64,000 bases of DNA from assembly GCF_035084215.1 (NCBI RefSeq), contig NC_090335.1, positions 54,374,001 to 54,438,000 on the forward strand, read 5' to 3'. Position 1 is the stretch's first letter, and the number at the start of each line of letters is the position of its first letter. The DNA comes from Heptranchias perlo (lineage: Eukaryota). The translations under genes were made by a program, and so were the position numbers. Below are positions 10,451 to 11,334 of this stretch, piece after piece. The notes under the pieces are model-generated. The model was not told the origin of the DNA, ran no database searches, and saw nothing but the letters and a program-made list of their open reading frames with translations.

Positions 10451-10740
10451 ATCTCCATTTTCGAGCAGTCGCTTCTAGCTGTACTTCAGTCTTCAGTTAG
10501 GGGGCATAATGCACTGCGTCTTTGGCAATGCAGCTTTGTATTCAGCTAACAGTGAATGCAGCTTCGAAATGCAGGGCTGATCGTGGTGCTTTCTCGCGGT
10601 ACATCAGATGAAATCAGTTAACTACAGCACAGTCCTCAAGTAATTCCACCAGTCAAACTACTTACTGAATACAGACATGTTCAAATTTCAGGTGGAGTGG
10701 GCAATGTATGACCTGCAGCTTCCGACTCCATCTCTATCAC

Positions 10741-10942
10741 TGATGTGGAGATGCCGGTGATGGACTGGGGTGGACAAATGTACGGAGTCGTACAACACCA
10801 GGTTATAGTCCCAACAGCTTTATTTGAAATCACAAGCTTTCGGAGCTTTGCTCCTTCGTCACGAAGGAGCAAAGCTCCGAAAGCTTGTGATTTCAAATAA
10901 AGCTGTTGGGACTATAACCTGGTGTTGTACGACGCCGTACAT
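10741..10942. mobile_element. Miniature Penelope pLTR fold-back insertion
   Basis: 82-bp arms (10778-10859, 10861-10942; 1 mismatch) around C10860. Same tgatgtggagatgccggtgatggactgggg tail as at 3874. Duplicated target catctctatcactg (10729-10742, 10940-10953). Confidence 0.92.
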
Positions 10943-11334
10943 CTCTATCACTGGAAGAGACAGGGCGTCATTTAGCATGGAAACATCGAAATTCACATGG
11001 CTGTGTGACAGTTCGGCTTTTTATGTTTTCCTGCAAGTGTTGTTCTGTTCAACTTTGGGAAAATTATATCAAGTAAAATTATATTGATGTTTGATATTGA
11101 GAAAAGCCCCTATGAACTGGTCAATGAGAAAGACTCGATTTATGTAACTTTGTGTGCTAACGGAAATTGTACATTATGTTCGCGCAATGGCTTAGGCAGA
11201 ATACAGATTTTAAGATAATAAAAATGTGCAGTTTCAAAATGTTTCTGAATTCTGCAGAGTTTGAATGAACGCTTTACCCTGTCTTCACTTAAAGGATTTT
11301 CCATTTTCACAGGTTTGATTATATGGCATTTATC

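Follow-up and report, generated by a model that had tools for sequence, protein, structure and literature searches.

A small head-to-head Penelope-like insertion in Heptranchias perlo and a possible fold-back route to its formation

The small palindrome, its sister element and their surroundings

The stretch of DNA analysed here (the window, 64,000 nt of Heptranchias perlo contig NC_090335.1) carries two palindromic insertions 3.7 kb apart, a small unit of 0.2 kb and a 3.2-kb sister element. When the full window was scanned, inverted repeats with a spacer of at most 30 nt turned up at two places only, the small unit and the centre of the 3.2-kb element. The features of both insertions are as follows.

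10729..10742, plus strand: left TSD, an exact 14-nt repeat whose last 2 nt match the tail end too
10741..10777, minus strand: tail of a Penelope-like retrotransposon (PLE), 35-37 nt, at the left end only; 36 of 37 positions match the tail region of the sister element
10778..10859, minus strand: left, tail-bearing arm, 3' part of the pLTR, delimited by arm complementarity
10779..10794, minus strand: 6-bp RNA hairpin 1 nt before the tail-less end; in two of its pairs both partners differ from the sister subfamily
10827..10861, minus strand: 5'-truncated minimal hammerhead, from inspection of motif and stems; 5' strand of stem I absent
10861-10856, minus strand: hammerhead core UGACGA, with stem II at 10854-10842; motif type after the cited part of PMC4209133
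10841-10835, minus strand: GAAA and palindromic AGCU; predicted cleavage after 10834, 3' strand of stem I at 10833-10827
10859..10861, plus strand: fold-back centre T-C-A with the 1-nt spacer C10860; on the tail-bearing arm, each of the three letters agrees with the parental CUGA core
10861..10942, plus strand: right, tail-less arm, the last 3 nt overlapping the right TSD
10940..10953, plus strand: right TSD, exact 14-nt repeat
3862..7064, no strand assigned: sister insertion of like architecture, with a 12-nt TSD (3862-3873 and 7053-7064) and a tail on the left only (3874-3908)
3909-5489 and 5491-7053, no strand assigned: sister arms, with the centre T-G-A at 5489-5491
4230..5489, minus strand: 419-aa open C-terminal part of a PLE ORF, with RT motifs, a Cx4CxxC linker and a GIY-YIG-type nuclease with two cysteines

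LINE fragments are frequent in the surrounding DNA, with RT matches in 4 of 27 ORFs. Decayed fragments of this kind, which we take to be CR1-like, lie at 1-760, 8790-10240, 22000-22400, 34200-35000 and 39600-40500, some of them with RVT_1 matches, and short, high-copy SINE-like pieces are found at 1681 and 8246. There is also a decayed inverted repeat at 32220-32490 (67-nt arms, 81% complementary, 137 nt apart and without similarity to the pLTR), which is possibly an old DNA-transposon relic.

The two arms of the small unit (10778-10859 and 10861-10942) are 82 nt long each and complementary at 81 of 82 positions around C10860, the sole mismatch being A10786/G10934. The unit is flanked by the exact direct repeat CATCTCTATCACTG (10729-10742 and 10940-10953), and the chance of such a 14-mer in the searched flanks is around 1e-5, as a rough figure. 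The first 3 nt of the repeat also match the end of the right arm and its last 2 nt the end of the tail, and as these nucleotides are equally assignable to either side, the TSD can be given as 9-14 nt. The tail (10741/10743-10777) is unpaired, with no partner on the right side, and the left terminus of the unit is thus the unpaired tail, which leaves no inverted repeats at the very termini. Alignment of the arms and repeats therefore confirms the geometry given in the preliminary description (82-bp arms, a 1-nt spacer and a left-only tail of 35-37 nt), and the 14-nt repeat, less the microhomology at both ends, agrees with the TSD of 9-14 bp proposed there. The TSDs of both insertions were read from flanking repeats, with no empty site seen. 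The left junction of the small unit was covered without a single difference by a contig spanning 10417-10764 at single-copy depth (11.6) in two runs of one sample; this check covered the left junction only, in a sample that may be the assembly's own source.

The pLTR of the small unit is 83.6% like the left end of the sister element over 122 nt, and as the sister encodes an RT and a GIY-YIG nuclease, the small unit corresponds to the last ~120 nt of a PLE, present twice head to head. It is without coding sequence, and its membership of the PLEs goes through this likeness. The RT of the sister ORF matches Pfam RVT_1 with an E value of 8e-6, which is below the curated cut-off, and the ORF has nine longer homologues at E<=1e-100 (38-66% identity); the Cx4CxxC linker is present in the ORF and in all nine. 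The features of EN+ PLEs found here are the RT with C-terminal GIY-YIG (in the sister), the inverted 5'-truncated copy, the one-sided tail, a TSD of variable length and a minimal hammerhead motif in the pLTR, which is truncated in the small unit. Neptune and Nematis PLEs have been defined by a C-terminal GIY-YIG, two cysteines between its motifs and a CX2-5CxxC linker (Craig et al. 2021, PMC8557442, in the part cited here). As judged from predicted protein motifs by these published definitions, the sister family is a Neptune- or Nematis-type PLE; the likeness lies in its two-cysteine GIY-YIG and its CX2-5CxxC-type linker, the small unit itself being non-coding.

No third pLTR was found within the window, a match with 3 mismatches at 62059 being treated as chance. 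A pattern scan of viral contigs gave 0 matches, and in a protein scan of viral contigs none of 118 pattern matches was confirmed. Two pattern matches in metagenome contigs were discarded as chance 20-nt matches in unrelated coding DNA, with no PLE protein similarity.

A short, non-coding, palindromic and duplication-flanked unit has the looks of a MITE moved by a DNA transposase, and it is very abundant as well, with a summed depth of more than 1 million against 10-16 in unique flanks. We nevertheless consider this origin extremely improbable, as the termini are not inverted repeats and the tail is one-sided, the TSDs (9-14 nt here and 11-12 nt in the sister, 12 being the maximum) share no motif and are not of a fixed transposase type, and the sequence is the 3' end of an RT-nuclease element. 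The one-sided tail, the variable TSDs and the RT-nuclease parent thus support the earlier view that such copies are retro-derived and not MITEs: the small unit is a single 5'-truncated head-to-head insertion of a PLE end. Stubs of this kind risk being mis-annotated as MITEs or as miRNA hairpins (Rfam gave mir-879, E 0.001).

The architecture itself has been described. Inverted pLTRs, an optional 31-bp tail, TSDs of 8-10 bp and palindromes at inverted junctions have been reported for PLEs (Arkhipova et al. 2013, PMC3846280), and an inverted 5'-truncated copy with a one-sided tail of 30-40 bp is called typical of PLEs, its origin being given as unresolved (Craig et al. 2021, PMC8557442). As far as the cited parts of these papers go, the published inverted-pLTR EN+ PLEs have in common with our insertions the head-to-head truncated copy, the tail of 30-40 nt at one end and a TSD of comparable size (~8-10 bp), but they are mostly asymmetric, with a short inverted copy beside a longer one and palindromes of 18-38 bp, while in ours, at both 0.2 and 3.2 kb, a single palindrome with a 1-nt spacer makes up the whole insert. 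None of the papers found by a literature search that partly covered older reviews and papers describes whole-insert palindromes of this kind, with a spacer of 1 nt. The earlier claim that two like insertions imply a rule holds in so far as the rule is real, but it is known PLE architecture (PMC3846280, PMC8557442, same parts).

Subfamilies, fixed ends and a probable start-site hairpin

Contigs of four runs were mapped to 5491-10861 at >=90% likeness. Depth is ~10-26 in unique flanks and ~0.7-1.6 million in the PLE bins, which is a summed value and not a copy number. It climbs gradually toward the 3' end over 1.5 kb. Per covered base, the last bin has the greatest depth (~2.4 million, compared with 0.9-1.6 million); the last 120 nt are common to several subfamilies, which makes this value ambiguous. 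Cover differs among organisms. In organism B, both the ORF region (5491-6750) and the small-type pLTR (10711-10861) are deeply covered at >=90%, with hardly any cover of the sister pLTR, which hints at an ORF-bearing family to which the small-type pLTR itself belongs. In organism A the cover dips at 6751-6930. Together these patterns suggest sister subfamilies that have the ORF in common and differ at the 3' end. Neither PLE was covered at >=90% likeness in organism C (run X14). Loose contig ends at 10782 and 10811 indicate at least one further pLTR subfamily, in which the tail is common and the start-site hairpin region different.

Among the 15 contig joints listed (of 1076), which at >=90% likeness concern the sister family and not the small subfamily, 11 place the tail-less end of the sister family at 7050-7054. 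In run X1, of the same organism, at least 139 contigs end there: at least 11 at 7050, at least 52 at 7051, at least 17 at 7052, at least 51 at 7053 and at least 8 at 7054, where the count at 7053 absorbs any longer ends and the counting of joints is incomplete. As 57 of these 139 contigs (again for the joints listed) run into SINE or LINE ends and not into a PLE tail, the peak does not derive only from PLEs nested in PLEs. At the other end, the tail start is fixed at 10741 in 7 of the 15 joints listed (of 1076). In the tail alignment, 7051 falls in column 38, which is the column of 10778, the tail-less end of the small unit. These clustered ends support the earlier proposal of a fixed end of the short arm ~35 nt inside the RNA 3' end. 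No strand-change joint was seen at 10860 or anywhere else among the 15 of 1076 joints listed, counting being incomplete.

One nucleotide before the tail-less end lies the 6-bp hairpin (10779-10794), in which two pairs have changed in a compensatory manner between the two subfamilies; the comparison comprises two independent subfamilies, and the structure was derived from the same sequences. The hairpin is likely the mark of the second RT start, a role predicted from its position and its pairing. The Poseidon protein PAc of the green anole nicks and extends both strands in vitro (Frangieh et al. 2024, PMC11167929), and it uses two RT start sites in a stem loop, the tail being the gap between them and ribozyme cleavage being unneeded (cited part of the same paper). 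Our insertions resemble this system, as there described, in the two probable RT starts with a tail gap, the stem loop of the start region, the probable use of both strands and the minimal pLTR hammerhead; they differ in clade (the linker here is Cx4CxxC) and in their target sites, which are not visibly AT-rich ATT sites, and the cited part gives no explanation for inverted copies.

The hammerhead remnant and the centre of the palindrome

The left arm, on the minus strand, reads UGACGA-A-stem II-GAAAGCUU and the right arm runs from ACGA onward, so that the left arm starts at core position U4 and the right arm at A6. Stem II shows one compensatory pair between the pLTRs. Inspection of the core and stems of both arms thus bears out the hammerhead remnant without the 5' strand of stem I noted in the preliminary description. 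Rfam returned no hammerhead family match and only three weak miRNA-hairpin matches, and the hammerhead was accordingly called from its motif and stems by comparison with Cervera and de la Pena (2014). Folding of the whole hammerhead stretches was no better than that of shuffles (z 0.68 and -0.47; tail regions, 0.20 and -0.79), for which reason our statements on structure draw on motif and covariation only. Minimal hammerheads are defined in the cited part of that paper (PMC4209133), which also mentions opposite-strand pairs 100-700 bp apart. With its minimal type I PLE hammerheads, the remnant has in common the core boxes, the extra nucleotide before stem II, G10.1-C11.1 and the palindromic 15/16 positions without helix III. 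The difference is that both copies in the small unit are cut inside the core; they cannot form stem I and are predicted to be inactive.

At 10811-10861, a contig joint connects 10861 with the earlier position 10811 across 19 other letters, at a depth of 83-92 in both organism A runs. It may represent a head-to-tail repeat, ~70 nt long, of the hammerhead core, and recalls units of the retrozyme or satellite kind. Animal non-LTR retrozymes (bioRxiv 2026.07.22.740005) are like the small unit in being short, hammerhead-bearing derivatives of PLE terminal repeats, but they consist of head-to-tail tandem units with whole ribozymes, while the small unit is a single head-to-head insertion with a broken one.

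Cleavage by the ribozyme as the source of the 5' end can be ruled out: predicted cleavage falls after 10834, and the centre lies 26 nt upstream of this site, so the 5' end of the small unit is not a cleavage product. It had also been proposed that the RT stalls at the ribozyme, in which case short fold-backs would cluster in the hammerhead core. The small centre does lie inside the CUGACGA box, 5-7 nt past stem II, and depth per covered base peaks in the last bin. That bin, however, also draws in other subfamilies, and the depth declines gradually over 1.5 kb, with no pile-up of contig ends in the table that lists such places. Only one of the two centres is in the hammerhead, the second (5490) being in the RT coding region, and the stop in the small unit falls after the stems, with stem II already passed, and not at the cleavage site. 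Moreover, PAc inserts uncleaved RNA in vitro and ribozyme mutants insert normally (PMC11167929, cited part). We therefore regard stalling as quite unlikely and do not retain this part of the preliminary description; the fold point probably lies where synthesis came to an end by chance, and is not one chosen by the ribozyme.

Formation of the symmetric insertions

The reading we favour, at a probability of roughly 0.55, is that synthesis was primed at both ends of a staggered cut and that the tail-bearing cDNA stopped early and snapped back on itself. As PAc is reported to do, the PLE protein would prime DNA synthesis at both ends of the cut, with one start on the RNA giving the tail and a second start lying 35-37 nt further in. 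The tail-bearing cDNA would then stop early, fold back over a loop of 1-3 nt and copy itself, and the sense strand made in this way could pair with the short cDNA from the other target end, which would allow joining without chance homology. Fill-in would yield the order TSD-tail-arm-loop-arm-TSD. Two-strand nicking and extension and the two RNA starts come from the published system, and the geometry, the PLE origin and the fixed ends are observed here; the snap-back and the joining we infer.

Several observations bear on this reading. The same geometry is found in two independent insertions with different TSDs, and as the arms are equal at both 120 nt and 1.6 kb, the two truncation points must be coupled; independent truncation of two copies would not yield 1-nt spacers at both lengths. 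The microhomology at both target junctions of the small unit is consistent with priming of the two target ends. On the plus strand each centre has the letters T-N-A, and in each the whole triplet agrees with the parent on the tail-bearing arm, in the large element as a Phe codon before Thr (in eight of nine homologues) and in the small unit as the core CUGA. A T-N-A closing pair at two of two centres is expected by chance in about 1 of 16 cases, and the case for snap-back comes from these two junctions (n=2). Folding of the cDNA 3' ends gave no stable terminal hairpin, and as a 1-nt loop cannot be a normal priming hairpin, the T-A closing pair may be chance or the loop may have been trimmed. 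Self-annealing of small hairpins leading to inverted duplications has been described for L1-made ends (bioRxiv 2024.12.14.628481, cited part), and Arkhipova et al. (2013, PMC3846280, cited part) took palindromic junctions of PLEs as a sign of self-priming, which they placed on antisense RNA and not on cDNA.

Both arms of the large element carry T at 5664/5316, where other copies have C in 485229 of a depth of 485547, and this agreement of the arms fits the snap-back reading. Shared private letters of this kind, together with the equal arms, the fixed ends and the TSD, would be accounted for equally well by twin priming with coupled run-off, in which both target ends copy one broken RNA (or a dimer in step), both cDNAs end at the single RNA 5' end without any snap-back, and end-joining follows with a loss of 1-3 nt. 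PAc does extend both strands and is predicted to be a dimer (PMC11167929, cited part). Yet this process gives no reason for the T-N-A closing pair at two of two junctions, the RNA 5' end it needs is not the ribozyme product, and it leaves two same-sense single strands with no homology to join by, so we hold it to be somewhat unlikely. The shared letters can also stem from conversion between the arms after insertion.

The distribution of differences between the arms can be read in two ways. The large element has 4 arm substitutions, all of them within its outer 226 nt; its inner 1355 nt are free of any, and the inner 1316 nt hold 75 CpG. This outer bias has a post hoc P of 0.0004-0.003, and as the single mismatch of the small unit is also outer, all five arm substitutions of the two elements fall in the outer 15%. 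This fits an outer arm that was made separately. Two of the four substitutions in the large element, however, hit one CpG in the hammerhead GAAA box, on opposite arms and strands (3974 and 6987), which looks like later decay combined with conversion or homogenisation near the centre.

Such homogenisation is part of a further explanation, in which the palindrome arose by self-priming on an antisense RNA template, or in which host hairpin processing and conversion later trimmed and homogenised an asymmetric inverted insertion. Self-priming on antisense RNA has been put forward in print to explain head-to-head palindromes (Arkhipova et al. 2013, PMC3846280), and conversion spreading from the centre would leave the substitutions in the outer 15%, where all five are found. 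But the antisense model leaves the one-sided tail unexplained, which the start sites seen in vitro explain (PMC11167929; both papers in their cited parts), and a 20-nt deletion at 5949, in the right arm of the large element and 459 nt from its centre, stayed unhomogenised; we judge this explanation unlikely. The deletion was also considered as the mark of a template switch and dropped, given a P of 0.13 for no event in the first 460 nt.

Going beyond the snap-back reading for these insertions, PLEs in general may close their insertions by a dedicated combination of twin priming and snap-back over a T-N-A micro-loop, the sense copy capturing the second cDNA. We offer this only tentatively. Were it true, perfect palindromes would be a main product, in which the inner arm would copy itself exactly and the outer arm would be reverse-transcribed separately, and the position of all five arm substitutions in the outer 15% would fit this.

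As the architecture is known, the small unit alone changes little and its value is that of a test case; the architecture and the reason for the tail are already in print. The formation of inverted PLE structures is still called unresolved in the literature (Craig et al. 2021, PMC8557442; Frangieh et al. 2024, PMC11167929; cited parts). The two-start-site rule is extended here from Poseidon to a Neptune- or Nematis-type family, with a conserved hairpin at the inner site. In a genome with many young symmetric copies, junction statistics could separate snap-back from coupled run-off, and, if the dedicated snap-back is true, a long-open step of PLE transposition would become readable from the junctions of many young copies.
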